Below, piece by piece: positions 128 to 38,547 of a DNA stretch of 61,434 bases. The translations under genes and the position numbers were made by a program. Origin of the DNA: Candidatus Levybacteria bacterium RIFCSPHIGHO2_01_FULL_38_26 (GTDB taxonomy: Bacteria > Patescibacteriota > Microgenomatia > Levybacterales > UBA12049); the NCBI GenBank assembly GCA_001782075.1, contig MFNO01000037.1:1-61434 (forward strand), written 5' to 3'. Every line of letters starts with the position of its first letter. Position 1 is the first letter of the stretch. The notes beneath the pieces were generated by a model, which was not told the DNA's origin, did no database searches, and worked only from the letters and a program-made list of their open reading frames with translations.

Positions 128-3100
128 ATGGAGCAGCCTATGCAGCAGGAAAGAGATAATCAGCAAAAAGCTCAATCTAGTGGCGAAGGAGAGTCTTCTT
201 TACCAGAACTAAAACTTACCGAGAGGCTCAAGTCTTCTGCGCCTCTTGTTCGGCTTCCTCAGAACATTGAATTTTCACCTGAAAAGGCTATTATTCAGCC
301 TTATGGTGAATACACAGTTGTACTAGGCCAAGGCGGGAACCAAATAGGCGTTATCGACAGCCAGGGAAGAAAAATTGATGAGCTGACAAATACAGAAGTT
401 TTGATTGCTGACTGGCGAGATTTGAGAAGGAATAGTAGCGGCGGTTATTATGGTGATCTAACAACTGGTCAAGGCGATTATTATAGCAAAAACGTCAGTG
501 GTCTTCCAGCGCGATTACGTCCGTATGCGGAGGAAATGATTAGACAAAACGGGGGCAAAAATATATTGATTCCACAGCAGACATGGAGGCTAGACACTCA
601 AGATATAGGTTCGATAAAAACAATAACGATCGGCGATAAGTATGTGCTGTTTGTTGATAAAGAAGGCTTGATAGCTTTTCAGGCAAAAAATGAGCAGGGG
701 GTTAATCTTCCTCCAAGAAATTGGAAAAGGTTAGATTCATTGGATAGCTGGATAAATAAGGTACCGCCGGAAATTAGAATAGCTGTAAATAATTCTAGAA
801 TAGAAGGTCTAAAATCTTTTATTCCTGATTCAGAGCGTGGTTTTGGAGTAAATGTACACGAAAATGATGTAAAAATAGTAAAATTCGGGAATCAGCCTGA
901 TAGCGAGTTATTTACGGATAGAATTAGAGGGGTAGATACTAATCTTTGCAGGGACCCAATTAATAAAAAAGTCTATTATTATTGTCAGAGCAATAATGCA
1001 GATACTTTAATAAAATTGGATACTACCCTGGATGATTCTAGCACGTGGCAGACGGAATCAGCAGAATTTCCTCAGAAATACGAAAATATTTCAAATCTTC
1101 AATTAGATCCAAGTGGAAATTTCTTTATGTTTCAATCAGGCGATTCTTATGTTTTTCTTGACAAAAATACGCTTCAAGAGGCAAAAAAGCTGCCAAAATT
1201 TTATAACGTTAAAGTTGACAGCGAGGGAAGACTCCGGGGAATTGATGCAAGGGGGCATCTGGTAATTTATGATGCGAATTTTCAGGAGGTAGCTCAAGCT
1301 GCCGAAAAAGCAAGAGTTGCGAGATTTGCACAGGGTTTGGCTGCTGGTTTATTCAAGAAAGAGGGAGAGGCTGCTCCAGCTAAGATTGACGTGGATCAAT
1401 TCCAGCATTTAGTTCCTGCAAAAACAGATTTTGAAACGCAATTTAATAATCAGCTTCAAACTATAAATAACCTGGATAATATTTCAGATATAAATCAAGC
1501 GCTAAACAGACTAAAATCTCGACTTTCCGGAGAGGGGTTAAAGCCTGATCAAATAGACTTTATTACCGGTGGAATTGCGGATTCGATTAGAGATAAGGAA
1601 GTAACGCTTGCCGCTCCTGTGATAGAGAATGACATCACAAGCCTTGATACGAAATTATCTTCTGGAAATCTTACCTTAGCAAGTATAGCTGAAGCAAGAG
1701 CTGATCTTGCAGAGCTAAAATCTCTTGAGGGACTGGCAGATGAAAATACGCGTTCGAAGATAACTGCTTTAGAATCAAGACTTGGTGAACAATCTGCAGA
1801 GCTTTTTAGAACTCAAGGCGCTGTCGTTGTGGAGCAGGCAAATGGTCTTGTCTCAGGCGTTCGAAATGAATTGGAACAAATGACAAGTATGCCGGCTTTT
1901 GCCGATTTTCAGGAATACAGACTTCCGCAACTCCTTTCAAGACTTGGGAGTCTGGCAAATGAGTGTCCTCTGGAGGCATCTGATATTCAAAGCGCAATCC
2001 TTTCTGCAAGAAGACAAATACAAGATCTATCAAGACAATACGAAAATACATTCAAAGAACATTATGCTCAAGTTCGGGAAAGAGCTTCGGAGGTCATGGG
2101 AGAAAGAGTAGAGCTATTAAGAACAGACGTTGATTCGTTTTTGGCTAGGTTGCGCGGCCGTGGATTTAAAGACAGAACGCAGGCGGAAACTTACATGAGA
2201 TCAAGCGAGTCTCTAGGGCTTCTGAGAACAGAAATAGAAGAGATGACAAGGCAAAATCCAGATATCTCACACGAGCTGGATAGGTATTTGAAAGTCCAGA
2301 TTGCAAACATAATGTCTGAGGTTGAAAGGGGAGGATTATCTACGGTTGCAGAGACAGGACAGCAAATGGAGCTTTTTGGAAAAACACTTTTCCTCAAATG
2401 GGAAGGACATGTGAAAGAGAAAACGCAGAAAAAAGTTGATCTTATTTTCATGGCAGAGGAAAGGACCAAGGGGCCAGGTATTCCGCCGGATCAGATCTAC
2501 GGTGATGTAGGACTTTCAGTTATTAATTCAAGAGGCGAAATGGAAAAAATAAGACTTTATGAAGGATGGGAGAAGGAAGATGCTGTCAGGTATGGAATCG
2601 AACCGTCAGTTCCTCCTTCGTATGTAAACTATGCCGAGTTTGGAAAAATAAGAAAAGACTATAATGACTGGAAACTTGGAGAAAATTCTGAAATCAGGAA
2701 AGGTCTTGATGATAAAGGTAATGAAGTTCGGGAAATTCGAAGAAAACTGCGTGAAGCAAAAGGTAATAGCCAGGAAGAAGAGACGCTCAGGGGTGAGTAT
2801 AAAAAAGCGCTTGATGATTATTTAGGTTTTTATGGAGAGAGACATTTATCTATTCTTCATCGTGTGGATCGTATAAAAAATGCTCCAGAATCTGAATATG
2901 AGAACGGAAAGGGATTTGTTCCTGAATGGGAGAGTCACTGGGTTGTTGACAACCAGACCGAAAAATATCTAGAAAATATGGCGGGTTCATTAAAGATGCA
3001 GATTGATCTTCAAGCAGATATTTTAAATTTGAAGGGGCACACAGGCACCGGTAAGGATCTATTGGTAAAAATGTTTGCCAACAGAACAAACAGGCCATAT

Positions 3101-3994
3101 TTTGCTATGGATTGTACCAAGTGGACAACTGAATTTGAGCTGTCAGAAGATGTTACGCTTGAATCAAAGGACGGTGCGTCGCAGACTGTAAAGGTGCCAT
3201 CAGTAGTACTAAATGCCATAACAACACCGGGTGCCATAATGTATTTTAATGAAATGAATGCGATGACTGAGCAGGCGCAAATATTTCTGCATGGTCTTAT
3301 GGATGAGAAAAGGACTTTGACTTTAAAGACAAGTTCTGGAAAGTCAGTAAAAGCGGATAAGGATGTTTTGCTGATAGGTTCAATGAATCCTGATTATCCA
3401 GGTACCTTTGCGCCTCAATTTGCAACAAGAGGAAGAATGGTTGAATTGGATATTGAATACCCCCCGCTTTATGGAGAAAGAGATCAGGGTGATACAAATC
3501 CGAATCGGCCTTTTAACTCTGCTGAGCCTTTGAGAATCGCAAGATCGGTAGACTCTTTATCTGATTTTACATATGAATCAAATCCTGAGTACAACGATTT
3601 TGTAAAGATTTGGGATAAAGAGGTGAATGGAGTCCAAAATGACGCGCCGGATCTGAATCCAACACAAAAATTTGATCTTGAAGTTATTCTCGCGCTTACT
3701 CAATTCGGAGACAAACTTCGAGAAGGATTTATGTTGAAATTTGATAAAGCGCGTGTTTCTGCGACTAGAGGGAATCTTTTGGTTAGTCAGCCGATATCAG
3801 GTAGGGAAATGAGGAGGTGCGCTTATATCCTTAGTAAAATGCCGGATGATCAAAAAGCAACAGCAGATCCTGAAGGAGTCGCAAGAGAATTGCTTGAGAA
3901 ATATTTCTTGACACATATTGACAATAGAGAGGAAAGAGGGCAGGTAAGAACTGCAATGGCTACTTGGACATCATCAAAAAGACCGGCTGCTTAA
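128..3994 (+). CDS. giant (1288 aa) protein with an unassigned N-terminal ~960 aa and a C-terminal AAA+ ATPase of the AAA_5 / MoxR / CbbQ-NorQ class
   Basis: Walker A GHTGTGKD (nt 3035-3058). Walker B-like IMYFNEMN (nt 3236-3259). The segment LLIGSMNPDYPGTFAPQFATRGRM aligns in my reading with the CbbQ/NorQ sensor region (SYNPGYQ...STRQRF). AGGAG RBS upstream. No signal peptide or TM segment is seen. Confidence 0.75.
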   Translation: MEQPMQQERDNQQKAQSSGEGESSLPELKLTERLKSSAPLVRLPQNIEFSPEKAIIQPYGEYTVVLGQGGNQIGVIDSQGRKIDELTNTEVLIADWRDLRRNSSGGYYGDLTTGQGDYYSKNVSGLPARLRPYAEEMIRQNGGKNILIPQQTWRLDTQDIGSIKTITIGDKYVLFVDKEGLIAFQAKNEQGVNLPPRNWKRLDSLDSWINKVPPEIRIAVNNSRIEGLKSFIPDSERGFGVNVHENDVKIVKFGNQPDSELFTDRIRGVDTNLCRDPINKKVYYYCQSNNADTLIKLDTTLDDSSTWQTESAEFPQKYENISNLQLDPSGNFFMFQSGDSYVFLDKNTLQEAKKLPKFYNVKVDSEGRLRGIDARGHLVIYDANFQEVAQAAEKARVARFAQGLAAGLFKKEGEAAPAKIDVDQFQHLVPAKTDFETQFNNQLQTINNLDNISDINQALNRLKSRLSGEGLKPDQIDFITGGIADSIRDKEVTLAAPVIENDITSLDTKLSSGNLTLASIAEARADLAELKSLEGLADENTRSKITALESRLGEQSAELFRTQGAVVVEQANGLVSGVRNELEQMTSMPAFADFQEYRLPQLLSRLGSLANECPLEASDIQSAILSARRQIQDLSRQYENTFKEHYAQVRERASEVMGERVELLRTDVDSFLARLRGRGFKDRTQAETYMRSSESLGLLRTEIEEMTRQNPDISHELDRYLKVQIANIMSEVERGGLSTVAETGQQMELFGKTLFLKWEGHVKEKTQKKVDLIFMAEERTKGPGIPPDQIYGDVGLSVINSRGEMEKIRLYEGWEKEDAVRYGIEPSVPPSYVNYAEFGKIRKDYNDWKLGENSEIRKGLDDKGNEVREIRRKLREAKGNSQEEETLRGEYKKALDDYLGFYGERHLSILHRVDRIKNAPESEYENGKGFVPEWESHWVVDNQTEKYLENMAGSLKMQIDLQADILNLKGHTGTGKDLLVKMFANRTNRPYFAMDCTKWTTEFELSEDVTLESKDGASQTVKVPSVVLNAITTPGAIMYFNEMNAMTEQAQIFLHGLMDEKRTLTLKTSSGKSVKADKDVLLIGSMNPDYPGTFAPQFATRGRMVELDIEYPPLYGERDQGDTNPNRPFNSAEPLRIARSVDSLSDFTYESNPEYNDFVKIWDKEVNGVQNDAPDLNPTQKFDLEVILALTQFGDKLREGFMLKFDKARVSATRGNLLVSQPISGREMRRCAYILSKMPDDQKATADPEGVARELLEKYFLTHIDNREERGQVRTAMATWTSSKRPAA

Positions 3995-4015
3995 TATTAG
4001 TTAAGAGGTTTAGAT

Positions 4016-7000
4016 ATGGATATGGATAAAGAAAGAGAGCCACAAAAACCTCCGCAAATAGATAAGTTTGCCCGCGAAAAAGTTTTTCTGGCAGGTCAGG
4101 CCTCAGAAGGAGGATTAAAAGTTTTGCCCGGCAAATCATGGTCTTTCCACTACCCAAATGGAGGAGAAGCAAAAAATGCGGCAATTTCCGGTTTGTTGTC
4201 CGGAGAAAAGAAACCTATCGATGTTACGGAGGATTTGAAGCCGGATGTGCTGATTTATGATGTTTCTACTCTTGAACAAGAAGGATTGCAATCGGTTGCC
4301 GGAAAAGTAAGAGATGTTTCTTCGTACGTTGCCCAATACGATTATCCAAGATTTGCTCAATTCGTATCACAGATGCACGGTACTGAGGTTACTCCTGATA
4401 CTGTTCAGGCTATTTATGATGGGATTGCTCAAAGTAGAATTCGTAAAAAAATGATTGACGCGTATGGTTTTACAGGTAGAAAACAGATAGAAGATGTGTT
4501 AAGGAGTGAGGCGGCAAGAACAGTTCAGCATATTGGGAGTCTTCCCAGAGTCCAAAAAGTATTGGAAGCTCTAAAAATGAATTGGCTGGCTGAAGATTTA
4601 CAACTTGCAAGAACAGAGCAGCGAGATCAAGTGATAGTTGAGCTTTCAGATGAAGAAAAAGAGCTTTATGGTCGGCTTAAAGAGCATTATCTAAATTACG
4701 TCAGAAGAGGAGATGAATCCGCTTATGAGGGTTTGGCAGGAGGAATTAAAGAAAATATTCCAAAGATTCAAAAAGAAGAAGAGCGAGCTGCTGATGAAAG
4801 TATGGAGAAGCTTGAACAGGAATTAGAAGAGTATAAGGATGAGGCTGTTCCTCCTGTGACACCGGGTGATCCTGCAATTCCACCTGATGATTCTGATGAA
4901 TATCACACGCCTCAAGTATCTCCATGGGAATCTAAGGAACAAGCAGCAGCGAGACCATATTTTGAAATAACGCCAAGCGGGTCAAGCACTAAACCGCTGA
5001 TAGGATATTATGCTTCGGGGCGAAAAAGTTACTATGATATTGAATCAAAAACATGGAGCAAGAAGAAACAGGTCTCATCATACAGCAAAGATATATCTAG
5101 CTCTGAAAGACAAACGATTTCCGGCACTACTGGTGGAGGATTAAAGTCTATTCCAATTCCTAACGGTTATGGACTGGCTGTGTCGTCTATTAAATTTAAC
5201 GGATCAAAACCAGAAATTTCGCGAGATCAAAATGGATGTTTTTACATTAATACGAGTGGTAACTGCAATTTTGAAGTAGATTTTTTGAAAGAAGATCCGA
5301 TTTTCGTTGGTTCTCCTGTAGAGAAAGATTCAGAAGAAATTTATAGAGGTGAATTGTCAACAGAGACAGAAGATGTGATCAGAAATGCGTCAGGAGGGTC
5401 GTTGGAAAAAGCAGAAACACTTCGTAATTACTTACTTTCCAAGCATTACTATCCGGGTGACGGGGATCTTAAAATGGCTCAGGCTCTGCAGTTGAAGCTT
5501 AGGAGAGATTCGACAGGAGATAATTACATCCAAAATCTTGATAAAAGTGAATATCTAGAGTGTTATTCGGCAAACACACTTTATATAGCCATGCTTAGGA
5601 AAGCTGGGATTTCATCGAGATTGGTCCTTGGCCATAGAGTCGAAAAAGCAATCGAAGGTAAAGCAACAATTGATTCAACGACCGGTCATGCGTGGTCAGA
5701 GGTTTGGGACGGATCAGCTTGGAGAAGGATGGATGCGACGCCCAAGCCAAAGCAACAAAAGCAAGATCAGGATCTGGATCAAACTACGCCTTCAGAGGAG
5801 GCAGAAGATAATGGAATAAATAGATCCTTCGACGAAGCTCAGGATAAACAAGATCGGGGGGGTCAAGATGAACAAGGTGAGTCACATTTTGATCAGGGTA
5901 ATAGATCTACGGACCCTTTGCAAATGGAAGAGGCCTCAGATCAGGATGTCTCACAAGGTGAGTCCGATCTGTCAAACGCTCAAGAATTTTCCGATAAGGT
6001 AAATAAAGAAAAACATTCTCTTGATCAACAGGTTCAGGATTCCCTTTCTTTCAAAGACTTGCAAAAGTTAGAACAAGATACTCAGGAATCTGATTTGTTT
6101 GATGATATGAAGGAGGATCTTCAGAAAAAGCTGGAATCAAAAGAGGAGCAAATGAAAGAGGAGATGAAAAAAAATCTTGATGAGATGGTTGAGGATGGAT
6201 TTTTGGATGAGGAGAGAAGGCAAGAACTTGAAGACCAGATCAACGAAAAGCTCCTAGAAGAATTAGATAGTCTTAAGCAGCAAATAGAGAAAGAAAACGT
6301 CATGTTTAGCGAGTACCAAGATATTAAAGAAGAAGTAATGCCGTTGGTTGATAATTGGTTTGAATATTTCGTTGAGAGACTTCCAAGACAAGAGGAGGTT
6401 GAATTGGATGAAGATTCTCTAACTCGCCAAGGCGCTTTTAATAGACATTCCGTCATGAAGCCAAGAAACTTACTTTTTGGAACTGTTAAAAACCCTCGTA
6501 TCATCAAACCATCTATTAAGCCGAAATTTTTAGCTGAAGCAGTTGTTGATGTAAGCGGATCAATGGCTGGAGAAAAACTTAATAGAGCAAGAAAGCTACT
6601 TGTCTTTTACAATGAACTTTTCTCAAGAATTGGCGATGAGTTTGGTTATATCAGATACGCAAATACTGTTTTTTCCGACACTGTAAAAGAGATAAAAACA
6701 TATGATCAGGAATATGATAGTCCAATAAGATATGATTGGGGTGACGGAGCCAAGTCGACTGTTAAGGTTCGATTGATGGAGTCGCTTATTGCAGGAGGAG
6801 GGACAGATATGCTTCCTGCTATCAAGAAAGCAGCCGGAGAATTAAATAAAGAGACTTTTGAATATCCTGATTATGCATCAGCGCTATATTTTATTGGTGA
6901 CGGAGGAGATACATCAGGAAATGCTCAGAGAATTAAAGAGTTTTTAAGGATAAACGAAGCAGAACATGGATTTGGAGAGCACATGCTGTCGGCAATAATG

Positions 7001-7150
7001 TTAGGGGATGAATCGCAAAGACAGGAGTTGGCAGCTATTTTTGGCGATGAGCATACTACCGTTGCGCCAGATTTCGATACACTAATCGAACAGAGTATGT
7101 ATAAATTCGATGAAGATATAGAAGACTATCTGAAAGATAAAACTATATAG
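4016..7150 (+). CDS. 1044-aa protein: unknown N-terminal domain, transglutaminase-like Cys-His-Asp core, D/E-rich coiled-coil linker, C-terminal von Willebrand A (MIDAS) domain
   Basis: Transglutaminase core ECYSANTLYIAMLRKAGISSRLV...GHAWSEVWDGSAWRRMDATP (Cys codon 5561, His 5687, Asp 5732). MIDAS motifs DVSGSM (from nt 6548), GGGTDM and IGDGGDT. Acidic low-complexity stretch at roughly nt 5740-6325. The ORF starts 22 nt after the AAA+ gene. Confidence 0.8.
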   Translation: MDMDKEREPQKPPQIDKFAREKVFLAGQASEGGLKVLPGKSWSFHYPNGGEAKNAAISGLLSGEKKPIDVTEDLKPDVLIYDVSTLEQEGLQSVAGKVRDVSSYVAQYDYPRFAQFVSQMHGTEVTPDTVQAIYDGIAQSRIRKKMIDAYGFTGRKQIEDVLRSEAARTVQHIGSLPRVQKVLEALKMNWLAEDLQLARTEQRDQVIVELSDEEKELYGRLKEHYLNYVRRGDESAYEGLAGGIKENIPKIQKEEERAADESMEKLEQELEEYKDEAVPPVTPGDPAIPPDDSDEYHTPQVSPWESKEQAAARPYFEITPSGSSTKPLIGYYASGRKSYYDIESKTWSKKKQVSSYSKDISSSERQTISGTTGGGLKSIPIPNGYGLAVSSIKFNGSKPEISRDQNGCFYINTSGNCNFEVDFLKEDPIFVGSPVEKDSEEIYRGELSTETEDVIRNASGGSLEKAETLRNYLLSKHYYPGDGDLKMAQALQLKLRRDSTGDNYIQNLDKSEYLECYSANTLYIAMLRKAGISSRLVLGHRVEKAIEGKATIDSTTGHAWSEVWDGSAWRRMDATPKPKQQKQDQDLDQTTPSEEAEDNGINRSFDEAQDKQDRGGQDEQGESHFDQGNRSTDPLQMEEASDQDVSQGESDLSNAQEFSDKVNKEKHSLDQQVQDSLSFKDLQKLEQDTQESDLFDDMKEDLQKKLESKEEQMKEEMKKNLDEMVEDGFLDEERRQELEDQINEKLLEELDSLKQQIEKENVMFSEYQDIKEEVMPLVDNWFEYFVERLPRQEEVELDEDSLTRQGAFNRHSVMKPRNLLFGTVKNPRIIKPSIKPKFLAEAVVDVSGSMAGEKLNRARKLLVFYNELFSRIGDEFGYIRYANTVFSDTVKEIKTYDQEYDSPIRYDWGDGAKSTVKVRLMESLIAGGGTDMLPAIKKAAGELNKETFEYPDYASALYFIGDGGDTSGNAQRIKEFLRINEAEHGFGEHMLSAIMLGDESQRQELAAIFGDEHTTVAPDFDTLIEQSMYKFDEDIEDYLKDKTI

Positions 7151-7206: not shown

Positions 7207-8307
7207 ATGCTTATAAAACCTCAGACTACAAATTTTGCCAAGCTTCGAGTAATGGGTGTTGGAGGAGGAGGAAATAATGCTCTCAACTCCATGATCTCCC
7301 AGTCCTCAATTCAGGGTGTTGAATTCGTGTCAGTCAATACTGACGCACAAGCTTTACTTCTTTGCCTGGCTTCTACAAAGCTTCAAATAGGAGAGAACTT
7401 AACAAAAGGTTTGGGATCTGGTGGAAATCCTGAGATAGGAAAACAAGCGGCTGAGGAATCATACGAGAAAATAAAAAAACTTATTGACGGGACAGACATG
7501 GTTTTTGTGACTGCCGGGATGGGAGGAGGAACAGGCACAGGCGCGACTCCTATAATCGCCAAGGCTGCCAAAGAGGTGGGAGCTTTGACTGTCGCTGTTG
7601 TTACCAAACCGTTTTCTTTTGAGGGGACACGCAGAATGGTTACGGCTGAAGATGGAATTGAAGGACTCAAAGACAAAGTGGATACGCTTATTGTTATACC
7701 GAATCAGAGAATTTTGGATGTTGTCGACAAAAAACTGTCGCTTATGGATGCATTCAAAGTCGCAGATTCTGTTTTGTCTCAAGGCGTGCAGGGAATATCA
7801 GATATTATCACTGTTCCAGGGCTTATAAATGTAGATTTTGCTGATGTAAAAACTATCATGTCAAACGCGGGATCGGCTCTGATGGGAATTGGTACGGGAG
7901 TTGGGGAGAATAGAGCTCAGACAGCGGCAAGGACTGCTATTGCATCTCCGCTTCTTGAGATATCCATGGATGGGGCAAGGGGAGTGTTGTTTAATGTATC
8001 AGGAGGAGGAGATTTGACGATGAGTGAAGTTGATGAGGCAGCGCAAATTATAGCCTCCGCTGCTGATCCTGACGCAAATATAATTTTTGGCGCGACCCTT
8101 GATGAATCAATGCATGACCAGATAAAAATTACGGTTATAGCCACAGGATTTGACCACTCAAGACAGACTTTTAGAGAATTTGTCGCTCCGCCAGCGCCTC
8201 AGAAAGAGGCGGCAAAAGAAGAACCGCAGCAGCCTCCTGTGCAGGAAAAGAAAGACGAAGGCGCAGATGTCTGGGACATCCCAGCATTTTTGAGGCAGAA
8301 GAATTAG
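7207..8307 (+). CDS. ftsZ: cell division GTPase FtsZ
   Basis: GVGGGGNNA and the tubulin signature [14 protein letters not shown]-terminal conserved peptide DIPAFLRQK. Confidence 0.97.
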
Positions 8308-8558
8308 GATTTTTCTTTATCAATTTTGTTTTTTAATTTTATAAACCTGAATAACCCCAAGATTAGAAGAAAAAATCCAATAGCTATTGGGATAATTGAA
8401 AAAACATATGCTATTTGTGTTTGTTCGAAGCGAATGATCAATGCCCCTGTTAGAAGAAAACCAAGACCTGTTCTGATATATGCCAAAAATGTTCTTTCAT
8501 TTGCCAGATGAGTTCTGTCTCTTGCCAGAGATTCCCGCAATGTTGAGTCTTCGGCCAT
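8304..8558 (-). CDS. DUF202 (YidH-like) small membrane protein
   Basis: Motif [20 protein letters not shown] followed by two hydrophobic helices. Confidence 0.65.
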
Positions 8559-8972: not shown

Positions 8973-11468
8973 TTAGAGTTCTTCCAATGCCTGCTGGATT
9001 TTTTCGGTTGCCTCTTTATAGCTGATAGTTTTGGAAAAGGTTAGGGGCTTGCCTATTTTTACCCAAACTTTTTGTCTTTTTTTGGGTATATTTTCCCAAA
9101 ACCCGCCTATTGGAGGGAAAATTTCTCGGTAGGCTGGGTCAATTTTGATTGGAATTACTGGGACTTGCATTTCAACGGTCATAAACCCAATCCCTTCTTT
9201 AAATTTTAGTAGATTTCCGTCTTTGCTGAAAGTTCCCTCAGGAGCAAGGAGGATTGAATACCCTTTGTCTAGAAATTCTCCGGTTAGTTCAAGTGACGCT
9301 TTTATTCTTTTTTTCTTATCAAAAGGAAAACCGCCTCCCAAAAGCTGCACAAAGTTTTCGCGGTAATCGAGCCAAATGTCTGAGTTGACAGCAATGACTA
9401 GTTTTTCTCTAATTTTGCTAGGAAGGCTGCGTAATACACAAGCTCCATCCATGACTCCTATGTGATTGAAGTAAAAAATTGCCGGAAGATTTATGTTTTT
9501 TAAATTTTCCTTTCCTTCAATACTCATAGGCACAAAAAGCGAATGGATAGGGAATGTGAAGCAGTTTTGTAAAAAAGTTCTTAATTTCGCGGCTTTTGGG
9601 CTATATATCCATTCTGAAATTGGGATCTCCTCTGCAGATGATGGAGCAACTTTAATGAGTTTTCTTAAATCACCGACGGTCGTTTGTGGGTTTATTTTAG
9701 TTTCTGAAATTGCTACTATATACTCTTGTTCTATCAAAGATAAAATTTCAACTCTTTGCAAAGAATCGAGTTTTAGATCTGTAGCCAAGGTGGAAGTCTC
9801 TTTGATTTTTGTAGTAGGTAGCTTGGCTACTTGAGATATAAGGTTTATTAGCTTATCTTGAGGTTGTATTCCTTTTGTCAGGGGATCCTTCGACTTCCCT
9901 TGGACAAACTCGGGGTTGCTCAGGGTGACTTGCGTCACTTTTTTTCTATCTATTTTAAGTATCGGCGTCCTGGGAAAGTCCTCGCCTTGCCACAGACTGT
10001 ATTCAAGTATTTGCTCATGAGAAGCGAGTTTTTGATTTGTGTCCTTTATGATTTTGGAAAGTTTGTTGGGGAATTTGGTAATAATTACCGCATGAACTGT
10101 CTCTCCTTCTTCATTTTTAACTCCAACTATGCATGATTCAATGACGAGAGGGTGAGCGTTTAATTTTTTTTCTATGTCTTCAGGATAAACTTTTTGCCCA
10201 TTAGGAAGAACAATTCTGAATGCGACTCTCCCCGTTATGTATACGAAACCATCATTATCTATTTTTCCTACATCTCCTGTATGATACCACCCGTCAACAA
10301 AAGCGGAATTTGTTTTTTCTTTGTCTTGAAAATACCCGGAAGAAATATTGGGTCCTTTCGCTAAAATTTCTTGTGATTTATCGTCTATTTTTATAGATAC
10401 TCCTGGCAGGGGTTTTCCAACCGATCCTAATTTTTTTTGAAAAGGAGTATTGATCGTCAAGACCGCGGTAGTTTCTGTCGCGCCGTATCCTTCAAATATA
10501 CTAACTCCCAAATTTTCCCATTTTTTCACTAACTTCAAATTAAGCGGTGCTGATCCGCAGCCAAAAAACAAAAGGCTGGGACCAATTTTGTCAAGGACTG
10601 GTTTAAAAATAATTCTTCTAGCCCAAAATGGAAGATTTTCAGATATACTGTTTAACATTTTCCAGGTCTTTTGTTTGTTTTCTTTCTCAACTTCGGCTTC
10701 AATTCCTCTCATTAATAGCTGCAGCGCTTGAGGTACGAGAGCAACGGAAGTGATTTTATTTTTTCTCAACGCTTTTGCTAGAGTGATTCTGTTAATTCTT
10801 TCCAAATAAGTTACCTTGATGCCTGTTTTGAATGGTACAAGAAAATCAACAAGCTGCTCAAAAACGTGGGAAAGCGGAAGTAGAGATAGTGCTTTGTATT
10901 GACTCTTGAAAGGGAAAGCTTCGGTTAGTGCATCAATGTTTGATAGAAAATTCGCGTGTGTCAAAACCACGCCTTTTGGAGTACCAGTTGTTCCCGAAGT
11001 GAAGGCAATTTCAGCAAGGTGATTTGTGTTTATATTGGAGGGAGCGGATAGGAGGGGGAAATTTTTTACCAACTCAGTTAAATCCTCCAAATAAAAACTC
11101 TGTTTTAATAGCTTGCCAAAAGTTCCAGGAATAAATTTGCCTTTGAATCCTACTTTGCAGGATGCTTTTGTCAAAAAAATTTTCAAAGTTTCATCTGTCG
11201 TTCGAATATCAATGGGGACAGCTATCGCTCCAATATTCCAGCAGGCAAAGAAAAATATGGCGTATTCAGGCATGTTTGACGACCATATCGCGACTTTATC
11301 ATCTTTTTTAACTCCATTGTGAGCAAGAAAAGCAGACGTTTTTAAGACAAGATCATGAACTTCCTCGAAAGTAAATCGTTGCGTCCTAAATCCTCGTTTT
11401 ATTTCATAGGCGATTCTATTTTTGTGAATCCCCGAGTATTCTTTCAGAAACTGTCCTAGGTTTTGCAT
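8973..11468 (-). CDS. three-domain fusion: ANL-superfamily acyl-AMP/acyl-ACP ligase, acyl carrier (PP-binding) domain, and PlsC-type lysophospholipid acyltransferase
   Basis: AMP-binding motifs FTSGTTGTPKGV, GYGATE and YHTGDVG. Carrier motif DLKLDSLQRVE. Acyltransferase motifs NHIGVMD (HX4D) and LAPEGT. I place the start at ATG 11468 (MQNLGQ...), 7 nt after the upstream stop. The ORF-track start at 11549 would overlap the upstream gene by 74 nt. Confidence 0.85.
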   Translation of the reverse strand: MQNLGQFLKEYSGIHKNRIAYEIKRGFRTQRFTFEEVHDLVLKTSAFLAHNGVKKDDKVAIWSSNMPEYAIFFFACWNIGAIAVPIDIRTTDETLKIFLTKASCKVGFKGKFIPGTFGKLLKQSFYLEDLTELVKNFPLLSAPSNINTNHLAEIAFTSGTTGTPKGVVLTHANFLSNIDALTEAFPFKSQYKALSLLPLSHVFEQLVDFLVPFKTGIKVTYLERINRITLAKALRKNKITSVALVPQALQLLMRGIEAEVEKENKQKTWKMLNSISENLPFWARRIIFKPVLDKIGPSLLFFGCGSAPLNLKLVKKWENLGVSIFEGYGATETTAVLTINTPFQKKLGSVGKPLPGVSIKIDDKSQEILAKGPNISSGYFQDKEKTNSAFVDGWYHTGDVGKIDNDGFVYITGRVAFRIVLPNGQKVYPEDIEKKLNAHPLVIESCIVGVKNEEGETVHAVIITKFPNKLSKIIKDTNQKLASHEQILEYSLWQGEDFPRTPILKIDRKKVTQVTLSNPEFVQGKSKDPLTKGIQPQDKLINLISQVAKLPTTKIKETSTLATDLKLDSLQRVEILSLIEQEYIVAISETKINPQTTVGDLRKLIKVAPSSAEEIPISEWIYSPKAAKLRTFLQNCFTFPIHSLFVPMSIEGKENLKNINLPAIFYFNHIGVMDGACVLRSLPSKIREKLVIAVNSDIWLDYRENFVQLLGGGFPFDKKKRIKASLELTGEFLDKGYSILLAPEGTFSKDGNLLKFKEGIGFMTVEMQVPVIPIKIDPAYREIFPPIGGFWENIPKKRQKVWVKIGKPLTFSKTISYKEATEKIQQALEEL

Positions 11469-11475
11469 AAATTTG

Positions 11476-12387
11476 CTATATGTTTTTGTTAAGAAACTTG
11501 AGAACCTTTTCTTGATATTCTTGTCTGAGCTTTTCTGGCAATCCTCCATGAACGCCTTCCTCCTGGAAAAGGAACTCTGCTCTTGGGTTATTTTTTAAAG
11601 AATCTTTGATTCTAGTTGCGTTTTCAAATGGGATTACCTGGTCTTTTTTTGAATGAATAATAAGTATTGGAATTTGCAGGTTTTTTGCCGAAGCTTGCGG
11701 AGAAATTTCGCTTGGATAAACGCCGACAAAGATTTTAGCCCAAATTTTTGTCAGTGAAGATAAAGGATATTTAAATACAAACAGATTTTGATAGTATTCA
11801 TTTATCACAAGATCAAGATTGGCATAAGCGCTGTCCGAAACTACCGCATTTATTCTTGTATCCTTGGCCGCAGTCATGATCGCAACCGCGCCCCCTAAAG
11901 AAAATCCCATTATTCCTATTCTATCAAATCCCTGCCCGCCGGCAGGCAGGCTCCTTTTTTCCAGATAATCAAGCGCACTTGCAAGGTCTTTTTGTTCGTG
12001 GTATCCGACTGTGGTCATAGAACCTTCCGAATCTCCAAAATAGCGAAAGTCAAAAAATAAAAGATTAAAATCGTCGTGCAAAAATGATGCCCATCCTAAA
12101 ATGTTTGCCTTGTCGAAAGGATAACCGTGAAGAAGTATTATTGTCTTGTCCGAATTTTTTTCTGCCGGAACGAACCAGGCGGAAAGCCTGATATTATCGA
12201 TCGTGGTTAAATTTATGGCTTGAAAGCTCCATTCGAAGTCCTGAGGAGTTAAATTAGTTTTGTATTTTGGAGGATGGGTCGCCGACCAAAATCCATAAAG
12301 ACTAAAAACTATTATAAATAATGTAAAAAATAAAACAAACGGCAAAATCATTTTATATATTTTAGAGTTTTTAATCTTAAATTTCAT
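11476..12387 (-). CDS. membrane-anchored alpha/beta hydrolase (lipase/esterase-like)
   Basis: N-terminal TM helix, HGYP oxyanion-like region, nucleophile elbow GFSLGG. Confidence 0.75.
   Translation of the reverse strand: MKFKIKNSKIYKMILPFVLFFTLFIIVFSLYGFWSATHPPKYKTNLTPQDFEWSFQAINLTTIDNIRLSAWFVPAEKNSDKTIILLHGYPFDKANILGWASFLHDDFNLLFFDFRYFGDSEGSMTTVGYHEQKDLASALDYLEKRSLPAGGQGFDRIGIMGFSLGGAVAIMTAAKDTRINAVVSDSAYANLDLVINEYYQNLFVFKYPLSSLTKIWAKIFVGVYPSEISPQASAKNLQIPILIIHSKKDQVIPFENATRIKDSLKNNPRAEFLFQEEGVHGGLPEKLRQEYQEKVLKFLNKNI
11931..11950. repeat. 20-nt GC-rich near-palindrome CCTGCCCGCCGGCAGGCAGG inside the hydrolase CDS; it contains the 10-mer GGCGGGCAGG (reverse strand) shared with 25249-25258 and 61274-61283
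   Basis: Read directly. It encodes LPAGGQG in frame. CCTGCC/GGCAGG can form a hairpin. Confidence 0.7.
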
Positions 12388-13675
12388 CTGCTAACTTATA
12401 CAATTTCACAAAAACTAAATATCCCAAAAAGGTAGCAATTCCCGCAATCGGACCAATTAGACGGATTCCCAGTGAATTTTCGTTCGTTGCCCCAAAAAAA
12501 GAAAGAGTTACACCAAAAATCACACTGGCAATGGCAAAAGAAAACTTCTGAAGCGTATTTTGCATGCCGTAATAAATCGCCTCGCGTCTTTGGTTCGTTT
12601 TTTTAGTATCATAGTCAATGATATCAGCTAGTATTGCGTTGGGAAAGATGAATTGTCCTGAGAGACTAATTCCAATAAAAACAGTAATCGCGGCTGCTTG
12701 AAAAAATGAAGTTGAGATTGGGAAAAAACCTACCAAAAAAAGAAGCGGAAAGACAAGGCTTAACGCAAGCATAGAATTTGAATATATTTTCTTTTTGCCA
12801 AACCTTTTAGATAAATGGGTTTGAATCGGCAGGGCCAACAGCATGCTTATCAAAACAATTGCTGAAAAAACCGCAACCATTCCTTCCGGCTGACCGAGTA
12901 TAAATTTTACAAAAAAGGGAATGAGGGCGTTTAAGAGATTAAATCCCATCGAGAAAAGCACAAAAGCAATTGAGAAAATTAGAAAATGCCTGTTTTTTAT
13001 TGTTGTTAGAAGTGAGCGATAAATTGTCAGATTTGATGGCTGGATGTTTATTTTACCGGGTTTAAGCAGTTTGCCGGCAATTCCAAATATCGAAACCCAA
13101 AATGTGGTGAGGGTTAATACTGCCAAAATTGCTCCCATCGCGGCAAAACCGAAATTTTGTATTAAAACACTTGAGCCTACAAGTCCGATCGCCGCACCAA
13201 CTATCCCAAACAAAACTCTCCATGCCGATGTTGAAACTCTTTCTTCTGAAGATTTTGCGATTTCGGGCAATATACCCTCATATGGAGCAGACACAAGGGT
13301 GTATGTGAGAAAGAAAAACTGAAGGGTTATAAAAAAATAAATTGAGTTTATGAAAATTGATCCTTGAATCGGAGTCCACAGAAGAAAAAAACTCAATGCC
13401 AAAAAAGGAGCTCCTATAAAAATAAAGGGAAACCTTCTTCCCCAACGAGATTTTGTTCTGTCCGAGATATGACCGATTAGAGGATCGTCAAAAGCCTCAA
13501 TAAATCTTCCAATTCCCATAAGTATACCAAGAATACCAATAGGAATAAGGGCTTTATTTGGATCTCCGCCTCCTGACCAGAAGAAAAACAGCCATGCTGA
13601 GACTGCCTGAAAAGAAATGTTTTCTCCGGTTCCCCCGACAGCGAAAAAAATTTTGTGCCTTGCGGATAGACTCAT
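12377..13675 (-). CDS. MFS transporter of the GPH / MFSD2-like type
   Basis: About 12 TM helices. GPH-type loop motif GHISDRTKSRWGRRFPF. Confidence 0.8.
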   Translation of the reverse strand: MSLSARHKIFFAVGGTGENISFQAVSAWLFFFWSGGGDPNKALIPIGILGILMGIGRFIEAFDDPLIGHISDRTKSRWGRRFPFIFIGAPFLALSFFLLWTPIQGSIFINSIYFFITLQFFFLTYTLVSAPYEGILPEIAKSSEERVSTSAWRVLFGIVGAAIGLVGSSVLIQNFGFAAMGAILAVLTLTTFWVSIFGIAGKLLKPGKINIQPSNLTIYRSLLTTIKNRHFLIFSIAFVLFSMGFNLLNALIPFFVKFILGQPEGMVAVFSAIVLISMLLALPIQTHLSKRFGKKKIYSNSMLALSLVFPLLFLVGFFPISTSFFQAAAITVFIGISLSGQFIFPNAILADIIDYDTKKTNQRREAIYYGMQNTLQKFSFAIASVIFGVTLSFFGATNENSLGIRLIGPIAGIATFLGYLVFVKLYKLADEI

Positions 13676-14034
13676 TATTCTAGAATAGCAACAAATTGAG
13701 CAATAGTATAGGCGCCCTGATGGGTGATACTAAGGGCAGAATTTTGAGCTTTGAATTTTGCCTGCCCGCCGAATTGGAGGGAATTTTGAATTTGGACTTC
13801 AGGTGACCCATTTGATTTATAAGTTATAAGAATTTCGAGCCATGAATCTGTGGATAGTGACAGAGCTTTTATAACTGCCTCTTTGGCTGCAAAAATTCCT
13901 GCCAATCGAGTAGGATCGTTATTTATCAACTCTTCTTCAAAGTAAACACGGCGAAGGAAATTCTCTCCGCCATTTTTTAGCGATTTTTTAAAAAGTGGCA
14001 AATAAACCAAGTCAATTCCTGATCTAATTATCAT
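13675..14034 (-). CDS. acpS: holo-[acyl-carrier-protein] synthase (4'-phosphopantetheinyl transferase)
   Basis: N-terminus MIIRSGIDLV, FAAKEAVIKAL, and C-terminal LSITHQGAYTIA. ATGA overlap with the upstream gene. Confidence 0.8.
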   Translation of the reverse strand: MIIRSGIDLVYLPLFKKSLKNGGENFLRRVYFEEELINNDPTRLAGIFAAKEAVIKALSLSTDSWLEILITYKSNGSPEVQIQNSLQFGGQAKFKAQNSALSITHQGAYTIAQFVAILE

Positions 14035-15029
14035 AAGCGCATAAATACTTTGTGTAGAAATACAAAAAGTCCTGAAAATTCATTAATCATCTCAACTGAA
14101 ATTCCTTCTTTGGGCTGAACATGCTTGAATAAATTGGCAAGGTGATAGTCATAAGACTTTCCTTTTTCCTCCAAGGCTTGTTTTAATTTGATAGATTCTG
14201 TGTAAGGCACGAATGTATCGCTTTTTTCATGGAGAATGAAGATTTTTGCATTAACGCTATCGATGTTTTGGTCGGGAGAAAAACGGGATAATCTTCCCGC
14301 AAGCTCCGGATCTAAAAGATTTTTTTTATCAAACATATTAAGTAATAATCCTTCTTTTTCAAGGGTTCTTTGGGCGTGATCAACTGCGCTTTTAGCAGCT
14401 TGCCATCGTGTTGTTTGTTTATCCAAAACAATCGTGTTTGTGGATAAGGAAGACAGATAATCCAAGATGCTGTAATAACCTCCGAAAAACACAACGCTTC
14501 GGACGTACTCGTTTATTTTTTCATCCTCTGCCGCAACAAGGGCTAGCGAAGAACCGACAGAGAAACCAACATATGATATTCTATTTTTGTCAACATCATC
14601 CCGCTCTTTTAGAAAATTAAATGAATCAATAAATGTTTGCGGTTCTTCGAGTTTTATAACATCATTTTCCAGATCCACACTTCTTGGCCATAAAACTACG
14701 TAACCAAGTCTTGCCAGGGTCTCACAGAAGCCCAAAAGAATTGGTCTGTCTTTATCGGATGTTTTTAATCCCATTGCAACAATAATTGCGGGTTTGATGT
14801 TAGCATTTTTAGGAATAAAAAGATCTCCTACTGCTTTTGCGCCATCGGGTGATGGGCTAAATTGTACTTTTTCAACAATGGGGTCTTGTGTAATATTATG
14901 AAGTGGTCTGAAAGGGATTTGGGGGAATTCCTGTGCGATCAAAAGCACCACCTTTGCGGCCGCGGCAAGAGGATTAATAGATATAAGAAAGATAACAAGG
15001 ACTGTTAGTAAAAGAAGCAGTAATTTCAT
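14031..15029 (-). CDS. secreted or anchored alpha/beta hydrolase (dienelactone hydrolase/esterase-like)
   Basis: Signal/anchor MKLLLLLLTVLVIFL, nucleophile elbow GFSVGS. Start taken at ATG 15029, immediately after the stop of the small upstream ORF. Confidence 0.7.
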   Translation of the reverse strand: MKLLLLLLTVLVIFLISINPLAAAAKVVLLIAQEFPQIPFRPLHNITQDPIVEKVQFSPSPDGAKAVGDLFIPKNANIKPAIIVAMGLKTSDKDRPILLGFCETLARLGYVVLWPRSVDLENDVIKLEEPQTFIDSFNFLKERDDVDKNRISYVGFSVGSSLALVAAEDEKINEYVRSVVFFGGYYSILDYLSSLSTNTIVLDKQTTRWQAAKSAVDHAQRTLEKEGLLLNMFDKKNLLDPELAGRLSRFSPDQNIDSVNAKIFILHEKSDTFVPYTESIKLKQALEEKGKSYDYHLANLFKHVQPKEGISVEMINEFSGLFVFLHKVFMRL

Positions 15030-15030
15030 T

Positions 15031-15198
15031 TTATTTCTTCTCTTCCACAATTTCTCCTTCTACGATTTTGCTTCTATCAATATTCAAGTGAAACTGTTTT
15101 TTGTCCGTTTTCTTCCGTCCTATTTTTCGCAAAAAATAGAAGACCAAAAGGGGTGCGAGAAACAAAAGTATTTTTTTAAATATAACTATAGGAATCAT
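15031..15198 (-). CDS. small single-pass membrane protein (about 55 aa)
   Basis: MIPIVIFKKILLFLAPLLVFYFL followed by a basic tail. Operon position only. Confidence 0.3.
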   Translation of the reverse strand: MIPIVIFKKILLFLAPLLVFYFLRKIGRKKTDKKQFHLNIDRSKIVEGEIVEEKK

Positions 15199-17983: not shown

Positions 17984-17996
17984 AATTAAGGCGTAT

Positions 17997-19007
17997 TCAA
18001 ACGCGACTGGGATGATCGACGGCACGTTTGCTCAAGGAATTATATATAATCAAAATAAGAGAAACAAATGGGATGGCAAGAAGTGCCCCCAAAATTCCCA
18101 ATAGTTCGCCTCCAACTATAACACTTATTATTATCGCAACCGGATGGAGTCCAACAGCTTTTTGCATTACACGGGGAACCAAAAGATTGTTTTCAGCCGC
18201 TTGAAGGGCTGTATAGAATAAAATTACGATTAGGGCAGAATTAAAAGACATGTTTAGAGCAACAATAACTGCAGGAACCGCTGCGATAATCGGTCCAATA
18301 GTTGGAAGTATTTCTAAAATCCCGGCGATAAGAGCAAGAGGAAGGGCAAATTCAATCCCCAAAAGACTTAGTCCAATCCAGGTAATACTTCCTATAAACA
18401 GAGACAAGACTATTTGGCCACGGAACCATCCTCCAATCTTATCCTCTATCCGAGATATAGTCAAAGCGATGCGTTCCTGCCGGTCGGATCTGAATAAATT
18501 AACCGTGGATTTCTTGAGTCTATCATGATCCAAGAGGAGGTAAAAACTTATAACAAAAATCATAAGAGTTGAAAATATTCCACCAAATACTCTGCTGGTT
18601 ACTTCAAATGCGTTTTTTCCTATTTCTCCAATCTCTGCCTCTACAAAAGATTGCAATTGTTCAGGTTTCAAGTCTATTCCAAAAATCACCGCTGCTTGAT
18701 TTATATATTCCGGGAGGGTAACGAATAATGACTGAATCTGAGATGAAAAAAATGGAATCAGGGGAAATATGAGTGTTGTTAAGAAAATAATTACGACTAC
18801 ATATGGGATGAGAACAGATATGATTTTTGGAACCCCTTTTTTTCTAAGGAATTCAACATAAGGAAGAAAAGCGGACATAATAATAAAAGAGATAAAGATG
18901 GCTATGATAATGCTTTTTAGCTTTAATATCAAAAGCCCGACGCTTAGAAGAAGAATGGCAGTCAAAAAATTGTTTTTTAGAATATTGCTTACTAAAGGAT
19001 TGTTCAC
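17997..19007 (-). CDS. AI-2E family transporter (PerM/YhhT-like permease)
   Basis: 8-TM profile. Conserved C-terminal region GLLGALLAIP. Confidence 0.75.
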   Translation of the reverse strand: MNNPLVSNILKNNFLTAILLLSVGLLILKLKSIIIAIFISFIIMSAFLPYVEFLRKKGVPKIISVLIPYVVVIIFLTTLIFPLIPFFSSQIQSLFVTLPEYINQAAVIFGIDLKPEQLQSFVEAEIGEIGKNAFEVTSRVFGGIFSTLMIFVISFYLLLDHDRLKKSTVNLFRSDRQERIALTISRIEDKIGGWFRGQIVLSLFIGSITWIGLSLLGIEFALPLALIAGILEILPTIGPIIAAVPAVIVALNMSFNSALIVILFYTALQAAENNLLVPRVMQKAVGLHPVAIIISVIVGGELLGILGALLAIPFVSLILIIYNSLSKRAVDHPSRV

Positions 19008-25153: not shown

Positions 25154-25256
25154 GACCCGCCTGCACTGGCCGATTGGCTCAGTTGGTTAGAGCGCTTCAT
25201 TCACATTGAAGAGGCCGGAGGTTCGAATCCTCCATCGGCCACAGTTATGGCGGGCA
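25154..25256 (+). other. intervening sequence in the tRNA-Thr D-loop: GA-CCCGCC-TGCACT-[tRNA-Val]-CAGTTAT-GGCGGG-CA
   Basis: A 6-bp GC clamp (25156-25161 with 25249-25254) encloses the nested tRNA. Confidence 0.6.
25168..25241 (+). tRNA. tRNA-Val(CAC), canonical 74-nt cloverleaf nested inside the tRNA-Thr gene
   Basis: GGCCGAT TG GCTC AGTTGGTTA GAGC G CTTCA TTCACAT TGAAG AGGCC GGAGG TTCGAAT CCTCC ATCGGCC A. Confidence 0.9.
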
Positions 25257-25313
25257 GGACGTCTCGTTCGTATCGAGAAGGTCGAAGGTTCGATCCCTTC
25301 CGAGTCCACCGCG

Positions 25314-28437: not shown

Positions 28438-28440
28438 TCA

Positions 28441-30322: not shown

Positions 30323-30327
30323 GATTT

Positions 30328-33900: not shown

Positions 33901-33945
33901 ATGATTTGATAGAATCTTTCGTTTGATATAATTTTGATAAATAAT

Positions 33946-34761: not shown

Positions 34762-34840
34762 AAATTGTTGGTTTTGCTTTTTGGTCGCTGTTTATTCTGG
34801 TTTATTATATAACTTATCTACTTTGTACTAGAGGAGGGGT

Positions 34841-38356: not shown

Positions 38357-38359
38357 CGG

Positions 38360-38524: not shown

Positions 38525-38547
38525 GGTTACTGTGATTATACATTATT

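Follow-up and report, generated by a model that had tools for sequence, protein, structure and literature searches.

A propeller-bearing AAA+ ATPase and a transglutaminase-like vWA protein encoded as a gene pair in bacteria of the Candidate Phyla Radiation

[quoted passage not shown] The YebA/TgpA proteins are multi-transmembrane membrane proteins, and a peptidase role has been proposed for the MoxR-linked YebA-like domains (PMC3495828). A related arrangement is found on a contig of Candidatus Levybacteria bacterium RIFCSPHIGHO2_01_FULL_38_26 (GenBank assembly GCA_001782075.1, contig MFNO01000037.1, positions 1 to 61,434 of the forward strand), the whole 61,434 nucleotides of which are termed the window here. 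Two large open reading frames, ORF1 and ORF2, stand next to one another at the start of the window. They represent a previously undescribed two-gene family that is restricted to the Candidate Phyla Radiation (CPR, Patescibacteria) and whose individual parts are familiar. The pair is best read as a soluble, fused variant of the MoxR-vWA-TgpA/YebA system. By analogy, it may form a self-contained and soluble AAA+/vWA machine, of the MoxR clade, that remodels and processes proteins with energy from ATP, a proposal that we hold with about even confidence.

Other described systems share some of these parts. In the cryo-electron microscopy structure of NorQ-NorD, a vWA 'finger' enters the pore of the ATPase hexamer and contacts the helix-2 inserts, and the C-terminus of NorD binds the post-sensor-1 loop; ATP turnover twists the vWA domain and stretches the adaptor linker, and the client is remodelled (PMC13036017). 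The vWA-MoxR ternary conflict systems include a beta-propeller class, whose members have the propeller as a fusion to the vWA protein (Kaur et al., 2020; PMC7159879). The Esr cluster is a sensing cluster that combines a propeller, a MoxR ATPase, a vWA protein and a transglutaminase, and its EsrD protein has been proposed to anchor EsrA (PMC13622651).

ORF1 (window positions 128..3994; 1288 aa) encodes a predicted beta-propeller, a helical stalk and an AAA+ ATPase. ORF2 (4016..7150; 1044 aa) encodes a helical domain, a TgpA-like transglutaminase-like module, an acidic linker and a vWA domain with a metal ion-dependent adhesion site (MIDAS). Both genes, and all features described within them, are on the + strand. 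The ORF1 boundaries come from the open reading frame list and translation and from full-length homologues, and the coordinates and lengths of both frames are those given in an initial annotation of the sequence, made without database searches. The ATG of ORF1 is preceded, 4 nt upstream, by an AAGGAG ribosome-binding site, and a second such site, AAGAGG, is situated within the 21 nt that separate the two genes. Seventeen full-length homologues of ORF1 were detected at 41-60% identity, and use of the ORF1 alignment as a second word-index query returned the same 17 proteins with no additions. ORF2 has ~178 relatives (protein clusters) in a database of 5.8 billion clusters, and almost all of the best 120 of these are full length, with 50-76% identity. 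As full-length homologues are present at 41-76% identity, ORF1 and ORF2 are real genes and not chance open reading frames. Public databases carry them under the names 'AAA family ATPase' and 'transglutaminase domain-containing protein' or 'hypothetical', and no description of the pair was found in a full-text literature search. Neither protein displays a transmembrane-like segment (maximal 19-residue Kyte-Doolittle mean of 1.12 for ORF1 and 0.87 for ORF2) or a hydrophobic N-terminus, in agreement with the earlier statement that transmembrane helices and signal peptides are lacking.

The two genes are inherited together. When a single genome for each GTDB species (185,579 genomes) was scanned with the search motif SEYLECYS, the pair was located at 40 loci. 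In homologues found by independent means, no position of this motif falls below 90% conservation, so that the count is expected to be correct to within a factor of about two. ORF1 is directly upstream of ORF2 at all 35 loci that are informative, each of which can be attributed to CPR/Patescibacteria, and the remaining five loci are cut by contig ends and have no upstream DNA. The initial annotation had treated a lack of co-location in related genomes as grounds for abandoning its reading, and adjacency was found in every locus where it could be seen. Pairwise identities of ORF1 and ORF2 correlate strongly (r = 0.94 over 30 loci). Pairwise identities of ORF2 alone range from 37 to 93% across the family, and all full-length relatives display the same architecture and the same length.

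The enzyme-like part of the pair is in ORF2. A model of aa 1-600 of this protein was obtained with AlphaFold2 from 51 sequences, with a predicted local distance difference test (pLDDT) score of 86 and a predicted template modelling score (pTM) of 0.62. It begins with an all-helical domain (aa 19-275; 4070..4840) modelled at pLDDT 80-92, for which no relative was found with Foldseek against the PDB and BFVD or in Pfam and NCBIfam. This domain is followed by a proline-rich and acidic peptide, VPP..P.DPAIPP.D.DEYHTP (aa 276-300; 4841..4915), which appears as an extended, non-helical linker in the model and in which P280, D285, A287, I288, P289, D292, D294, E295, Y296 and H297 are invariant in 20 sequences. 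Next come a beta-sandwich (aa 316-425) and a transglutaminase-like core (aa 449-576), which together span 4961..5743. Transglut_core is matched above the Pfam cut-off at aa 515-574 (E 6.7e-10) and in 20 of 20 homologues, and the triad C516, H558 and D573 is invariant in the same number of homologues, which bears out the Cys-His-Asp core recognized in the initial annotation. The sandwich and core resemble the periplasmic domain of Pseudomonas TgpA (6g49) in a Foldseek search (E 7.3e-9, probability 1.00, TM score on the target 0.54, 292 columns), and the same structure is found by a sequence profile search with ORF2; the next Foldseek matches are bacterial 'putative cysteine proteases'. A comparison with MoxR-vWA-TgpA operons had been made at the outset, and it fits, with 6g49 as the closest structure to the ORF2 module. 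By analogy with its relatives, the module may act as a peptidase, as do the MoxR-linked YebA-like domains in the published proposal, or in cross-linking, as has been suggested for EsrD; either chemistry may apply.

The C-terminal half of ORF2 joins this module to the vWA domain. The intervening acidic linker (aa 580-790; 5753..6385) is 43% D/E/Q with a net charge of -40, and thus corresponds to the acidic, D/E/Q-rich stretch that had been reported. It starts with a low-complexity part, aa 580-640, that varies in length and displays 21% identity, and continues with a charged helical part that is conserved (aa 641-775, 45% identity). A homologue from Magasanikbacteria (P0135) has ~60 extra residues of Q/E/S/G-rich repeats within the low-complexity part, at alignment columns ~640-720. 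Since the flanking domains remain aligned on both sides of this expansion, the length of the linker is free to vary. Between the linker and the vWA domain is a basic segment of 49 residues (aa 791-839; 6386..6532), which at 73% identity is the best-conserved part of the protein; its invariant residues include R817, N818, L819, F821, G822, N826, P827 and R828. Identities in the catalytic, pre-vWA and vWA parts of ORF2 range from 63 to 73%.

The vWA domain itself (6533..7147) carries a complete MIDAS, D845-x-S847-x-S849 with T930 and D962, and ends in a conserved C-terminus. All five MIDAS residues are invariant, as are Y1038 and K1042 at the C-terminal end. In the window protein, the VWA_2 match is below the Pfam cut-off (19 bits vs. 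27, E 0.002, aa 843-1021), but 18 of 20 family members match VWA_2 (E up to 0.01, best 6.6e-8). Because of these matches and the invariance of the MIDAS, the vWA assignment is probable despite the sub-threshold score, and the complete MIDAS that had been read from the sequence is confirmed. No vWA chain in the PDB was matched by ORF2 in phmmer or profile searches.

The motor of the pair is at the C-terminal end of ORF1, where an AAA_5-type ATPase had been proposed. The alpha/beta core is of the AAA_5 or CbbQ-NorQ-like type and comprises aa 945-1115 (2960..3472). AAA_5 is the sole Pfam domain above cut-off in ORF1 (aa 968-1093, E 8.7e-15, 55 bits vs. a cut-off of 22), and the closest relatives of solved structure are CbbQ (5c3c) and NorQ (9qhd/9qh4), at E 1e-9 to 1e-10; in the alignment of the AAA+ module the values are E 3.7e-10 for CbbQ 5c3c and 7e-9 for NorQ. 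The sensor-1 residue N1087, the arginine finger R1103 and the sensor-2 residues R1226 and R1229 do not vary among 15 homologues, and they occupy the positions aligned with CbbQ and NorQ. There are only short gaps relative to these two proteins across the helix-2 insert region, which suggests an insert of similar length in ORF1; at aa 1001-1012 (window 3128-3163) it holds an invariant acidic motif, ELSEDVxLE, where NorQ has GRxLL. The lid and C-terminal helical region (aa 1116-1288; 3473..3991) ends in a conserved basic tail, WTSxKRxxx. In the lid, a sensor-2-like G1225 is invariant alongside R1226 and R1229, and there is no match to the Pfam domain CbbQ_C in ORF1.

The identity of the ATPase domain had thus been called correctly, but the initial annotation overlooked an ATP site that is both invariant and non-canonical. 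The Walker A motif, GHTGTGKD (aa 970-977; 3035..3058), aligns with GPTGCGKS of CbbQ and has an aspartate in place of the canonical serine or threonine, the residue that normally ligates Mg2+. The Walker B motif, AIMYFNE (aa 1036-1042; 3233..3253), aligns with ICYLDE of CbbQ and has an asparagine for the canonical aspartate, while the glutamate is retained. The family thus departs from both GxxxxGK[S/T] and hhhhDE, with the Walker A lysine and the Walker B glutamate remaining. Of the 37 matches to the Walker A pattern in ORF1 homologues from the loci, 36 read GKD, as do 71 of 73 long library representatives (1000 aa or more), some of which are only 19-25% identical to the window protein in the N-terminal region. 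The [F/L]NE motif was picked up in most of these long representatives, and N1041 and E1042 are invariant. Judged from the residues, GKD/NE may represent an exchange of charges that compensate one another near the metal, and not a site that has lost its activity. No precedent for an AAA+ protein with a GKD Walker A was found in the literature search.

The remaining ~940 residues of ORF1 were modelled with AlphaFold2 from a 17-sequence alignment of aa 1-940. With a mean pLDDT of 77.5 and a pTM of 0.42, the individual domain folds are credible and their mutual arrangement is not. A tail predicted to be disordered (aa 1-23, pLDDT below 50) leads to a peptide motif, LPELK...S..P (aa 24-39; 197..244), in which L25, P26, E27, L28, S36 and P39 are invariant or nearly so. 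The LPELK residues (aa 25-29) might serve as a MIDAS ligand. The motif runs into a WD40-like beta-propeller (aa 30-383; 215..1276) of ~28 strands, mostly at pLDDT 80-90. In Foldseek searches of the PDB this domain resembles seven-blade WD40 propellers (E 1e-7 to 1e-5, TM score on the target 0.46-0.54), including Sec12 (4h5j), a bacterial WD40 protein (5yzv), Doa1 (3odt) and 4d6v; no WD40 or other repeat family is matched in ORF1 by Pfam or NCBIfam. The propeller is followed by a long alpha-helical stalk (aa 385-733; 1280..2326) with modelled helices of up to 63 residues, for which neither Foldseek nor a PDB profile search found a specific relative. A highly conserved motif, AETGQQM...F.KWE (aa 741-759), stands just before a small beta domain (aa 769-834), and a helical pre-AAA region (aa 835-944; with the beta domain, 2432..2959) contributes modelled helices at aa 835-918 that lead into the ATPase. 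The beta-propeller and the long helical region that had been guessed at in ORF1 are therefore borne out by the model and by the structural matches.

An exhaustive search of aa 1-940 with phmmer against 1.84 billion representative proteins returned 122 proteins, all of the same architecture or fragments of it; the long ones range from ~950 to 1,680 aa, with most at 1,220-1,390 aa. As all 122 matches are from the one family, the propeller-stalk architecture exists nowhere else. No characterized family was found for the N-terminal regions by Pfam, NCBIfam, sequence and profile searches of the PDB, Foldseek against the PDB and BFVD, or phmmer, so that the other ground on which the initial annotation would have been set aside, membership of these regions in a family already characterized, did not materialize either.

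The order of these domains raises the possibility of a structural scaffold, lattice or cytoskeleton-like assembly, in which the degenerate ATP site would serve solely as a nucleotide-dependent switch for assembly, with cross-links introduced into the lattice by the transglutaminase domain. The top-ranked long Foldseek matches to ORF1 are indeed coat and scaffold proteins (Utp proteins, IFT-A, clathrin, COPI and nucleoporins), with which it shares the order of a propeller and then helical repeats, and the non-canonical Walker motifs and the link of TgpA-type domains to cross-linking, with EsrD as proposed anchor of EsrA, are in accord. These long matches, however, superpose poorly (TM score 0.13-0.25, root-mean-square deviation above 20 Å), and only the propeller fold is truly matched. 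The invariant Walker B glutamate, sensor 1, arginine finger and sensor 2 point to real hydrolysis, and a rare accessory pair is not what would be expected of a core cytoskeleton. A structural role is thus very unlikely.

The machine reading is supported by the invariance of the catalytic and MIDAS residues, the constant adjacency of the genes and the co-divergence of their products. Its working can be envisaged on the pattern of NorQ-NorD and CbbQ-CbbO. ORF1 would assemble into a hexameric ring with six projecting arms, each made up of stalk and propeller, and one ORF2 molecule would dock on this ring by way of its vWA domain. The basic segment of ORF2 is directly N-terminal of the first vWA strand, near the position of the NorD finger, and the ORF2 C-terminus likewise matches a NorD contact. 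On that analogy, aa 791-839 may be a pore 'finger' that touches the acidic helix-2 insert of ORF1, and the conserved C-terminus may bind the ring. The sequences of ELSEDVxLE in ORF1 and of the basic segment in ORF2 are charge-complementary, and the two are a candidate finger-in-pore contact. The MIDAS would grip an acidic residue, which could be provided by a target protein, by the LPELK tail of ORF1 or by the DEYH peptide of ORF2 (aa 294-297). ATP turnover would twist or stretch the acidic linker, whereby the transglutaminase-like site would be positioned or unmasked, and the Cys-His-Asp site would then cut, deamidate or cross-link a protein of the cytoplasm that the propeller arms hold in place. 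As ORF2 is strongly conserved, its target may well be a conserved cellular one.

Several observations weigh against such a machine. Ring formation and docking are drawn purely from analogy. With GKD in Walker A and NE in Walker B, both non-canonical, normal Mg-ATP hydrolysis is not assured. The GRxLL motif of the NorQ helix-2 insert is absent from ORF1, and neither NorD nor CbbO has a sequence match to ORF2 (phmmer and profile searches) or a fold match (Foldseek of aa 1-600). There is no substrate candidate among the 130 immediate neighbours of the pair. The family is also rare, which fits awkwardly with a general housekeeping role.

Rarity bears on the place of the pair in the biology of its hosts. 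Patescibacteria number thousands of GTDB species, so that roughly 1% of these carry the pair. The source names of ORF2 relatives include Roizmanbacteria, Taylorbacteria, Paceibacterota, Kerfeldbacteria and Magasanikbacteria, and the genome scan added Levyi-, Davies-, Uhr-, Peri- and Peregrinibacteria. Only a few of the CPR lineages carry the pair, which is an accessory module in them. The initial annotation had reasoned that a machine taking up 7 kb of a small genome must be an important one, a view that does not survive a count of 40 loci among 185,579 species genomes and ~178 clusters. Sequences of the pair cluster by CPR group (Microgenomates, Parcubacteria and Peri/Peregrinibacteria), and the GC content of the loci ranges from 0.32 to 0.61. 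From this lineage-congruent clustering and the spread in GC content, the history of the pair looks like long vertical residence with frequent loss and not like recent transfer. An origin as a mobile element or from a phage or plasmid was rejected, as no relatives are found on IMG/VR viral contigs or PLSDB plasmids.

Occurrence outside the CPR was considered for loci with the titles Gammaproteobacteria, Methyloversatilis, Pseudomonadales and Saccharibacteria and was rejected, since those loci cluster with Parcubacteria or Microgenomates. The TPA_asm loci with odd titles are L001, L003, L006, L008, L011-L013, L017, L018, L027, L036 and L039. Their clustering was judged where both proteins could be compared; the 'Methyloversatilis' locus has a GC content of 0.44, and the organism labels appear unreliable.

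A patchy and rare distribution is also what a conflict or anti-phage system of the abortive-infection type might display. In such a system the propeller would sense an invader protein, a threshold would be imposed by the AAA+/vWA unit, and the effector that is set free would be the transglutaminase-like peptidase. The pair is self-contained, with no linked client gene, and the propeller is by far its most divergent domain (27% identity to the window protein, the lowest of any domain, vs. 71% for the AAA core, the highest). There are published parallels in the beta-propeller class of vWA-MoxR systems (PMC7159879) and in the propeller/MoxR/vWA/transglutaminase Esr cluster (PMC13622651). In the published propeller class, however, the propeller is on the vWA protein and not on the ATPase, and the architecture of the present family is fixed in every member, with no swapping of effectors. 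ORF2 evolves about as slowly as FtsZ: between the window and a related locus, L002, identity is 71% for ORF2 and 77% for FtsZ. The lineage-following clustering and the range in GC content are as expected for long residence, and the pair is found on neither viral contigs nor plasmids. Its flanks consist of housekeeping genes and not defence islands, and a search with PADLOC gave no match apart from a weak one to TerY/vWA, on which basis a known defence system was rejected. A role in conflict is therefore considered unlikely, if worth keeping in mind.

The gene neighbourhood was surveyed by all-against-all clustering of 524 open reading frames and by a Pfam census of the 130 immediate neighbours. 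No conserved third gene was found in either, and no neighbour family is present in more than three loci, by which a conserved third gene as part of the system is excluded. The neighbours are ordinary housekeeping genes, such as those for EF-Tu/Ts, Mur ligases, SecY, DnaB and RbfA. This bears on the idea that the pair is a maturation chaperone for one unlinked client, comparable to NorQD, CbbQO and CoxDE, with the transglutaminase-like domain binding or processing that client. NorQD serves nitric oxide reductase, CbbQO serves Rubisco and CoxDE serves CO dehydrogenase. CbbQ and NorQ are the closest solved relatives of the ORF1 ATPase, ORF2 has the same layout of N-terminal domain, linker and C-terminal vWA as NorD and CbbO, and a rare client would account for a rare distribution. 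To our knowledge, however, the known cbb, nor, cox and gvp systems are encoded next to their clients, whereas the 130 flanking genes here display no recurrent family. The invariant Cys-His-Asp triad argues for catalysis and not for mere binding, and nothing equivalent to the propeller and stalk of 940 aa exists in those chaperones. A dedicated client chaperone is thus rather improbable.

In the window, the gene downstream of ORF2 is ftsZ (7207..8307; TIGR00065, E 7.6e-129), and the initial annotation placed weight on this adjacency. An accessory of cell division, which would act on FtsZ or the divisome, can be imagined, as ftsZ begins only 56 nt past ORF2 with no GC-rich terminator detected between them, ftsZ is 2.8 kb downstream of the pair at L002, and there are FtsW-like genes no more than 10 kb away in the window, at L002 and at a further locus, L010. 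A tblastn search with FtsZ, however, was positive near the pair in only that one of 40 related loci, on which basis a linkage to ftsZ or division was rejected, and conservation is likewise lacking for all other neighbours. The 130 immediate neighbours show no enrichment in division genes, and most CPR genomes carry ftsZ without the pair, as judged from the scan and from general knowledge. The adjacency in the window is coincidental, and a division role is scarcely credible. An 84-aa open reading frame at 8304-8558 (- strand) overlaps the end of ftsZ and is called DUF202 in public assemblies of the same sequence.

Elsewhere in the window, a cluster at 8973-15050 (- strand) holds an 858-aa fusion of AMP-binding, phosphopantetheine-binding and acyltransferase domains, similar to acyl-[ACP]-phospholipid O-acyltransferase (Aas) at scores below the model cut-offs, together with two alpha/beta hydrolases and a GPH/MFS_2 transporter. 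The cluster may serve to scavenge lysolipids or fatty acids, a capacity of relevance to a CPR cell unable to make lipids. At 15248-18025 (- strand), a 925-aa protein of the UPF0182 family (Pfam E 3e-280) is encoded beside an AI-2E family transporter. A glycosylation or polysaccharide cluster at ~25200-37660 (+ strand) comprises a GT4 glycosyltransferase, a DegT-type aminotransferase, a flippase, three PMT_2 paralogues and a Wzy_C ligase-like protein. In a large part of this cluster, at ~28-38 kb, GC content is 0.32-0.35; in most of the remainder of the window it is 0.36-0.42. The cumulative GC skew peaks at ~37600-40000, where the genes switch from almost all on the + strand to almost all on the - strand; this convergence point looks like a replication terminus.

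CPR/Patescibacteria have tiny genomes, and most of their large conserved proteins are unexplained. The present analysis delimits a family of two genes that together span 7 kb and have clear catalytic residues, separates a real association (the pair) from a coincidental one (ftsZ) and places the pair within the poorly understood MoxR-vWA-transglutaminase-like group. For AAA+ enzymology, the invariant GKD/NE site is a natural experiment on the Walker motifs. With an ATPase, an adaptor, an enzyme and putative target-binding arms contained in two soluble proteins, the pair might offer a tractable model for the way in which vWA/MIDAS domains couple AAA+ rings to chemistry. The rarity of the family argues against a central role in CPR biology.

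Of the systems with which the pair can be compared, the vWA-MoxR ternary systems and the Esr cluster resemble it in combining a MoxR-type ATPase, a vWA protein and a beta-propeller and in their patchy distribution; Esr also has a transglutaminase. They differ in having a separate third component, variable effectors and kinase/FHA signalling, with their propellers on the vWA protein or on a secreted filament, whereas the pair has a fixed, cytoplasmic two-gene architecture with the propeller on the ATPase. No conserved third component, such as those of the ternary systems (VMAP, iSTAND, FtsH or a vWA-fused propeller), accompanies the pair in 35 loci, and exchangeable effector domains are not seen, the architecture being fixed in all full-length relatives.

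Eukaryotic midasin (Rea1) also combines an AAA_5-type ATPase with a D/E-rich linker directly before a MIDAS domain, and the initial annotation had called the arrangement midasin-like. The likeness holds for the acidic linker followed by a MIDAS. It does not extend to the rest of the protein, as midasin is one polypeptide with six tandem AAA modules, its own MIDAS and no transglutaminase-like domain, whereas the pair has a single AAA module, presumably assembled as a homo-hexamer, and carries its MIDAS on a second protein, as in CbbQ-CbbO and NorQ-NorD. The midasin MIDAS ligands Rsa4 and Ytm1 are WD40 proteins with an N-terminal acidic contact, and they loosely resemble the LPELK motif and propeller of ORF1. 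A more speculative and distinctly improbable reading is that the midasin principle has in the pair a split, homo-oligomeric prokaryotic counterpart, whose AAA+ catalytic site would be of a kind not seen before. An AAA_5 ring would pull, by way of the D/E-rich linker and the MIDAS, on a WD40-bearing peptide built into the ATPase, and would thereby gate a transglutaminase-like enzyme that acts on a highly conserved cellular machine such as the ribosome or divisome.

The pair resembles the NorQ-NorD and CbbQ-CbbO systems in several respects. They include the nearest solved relatives of the ATPase and are two-gene units of ATPase and adaptor. NorD and CbbO, as ORF2, have an N-terminal domain, a linker, a C-terminal vWA with MIDAS and a functionally important C-terminus, and an acidic linker that joins the N-terminal domain to the vWA is the part of NorD remodelled by NorQ. 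The pair differs in that no client gene is adjacent and the adaptor, ORF2, itself holds an enzyme domain. In ORF1, the GRxLL of NorQ is replaced by ELSEDVxLE, the CbbQ_C lid is not matched and the ATP-site motifs are non-canonical, and similarity of NorD and CbbO to ORF2 is not detectable.

With the MoxR-vWA-TgpA operons, the pair shares the genetic linkage of a MoxR-clade AAA+ ATPase, a vWA/MIDAS domain and a TgpA-type Cys-His-Asp core, and the sandwich and core of ORF2 superpose on TgpA 6g49. It differs from them in that a single soluble protein without transmembrane segments unites the transglutaminase-like domain with the vWA domain, and in that the ATPase is of the AAA_5/CbbQ-NorQ-like type, has the GKD/NE site and carries a unique 940-aa propeller-stalk. 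It differs also in its restriction to the CPR.

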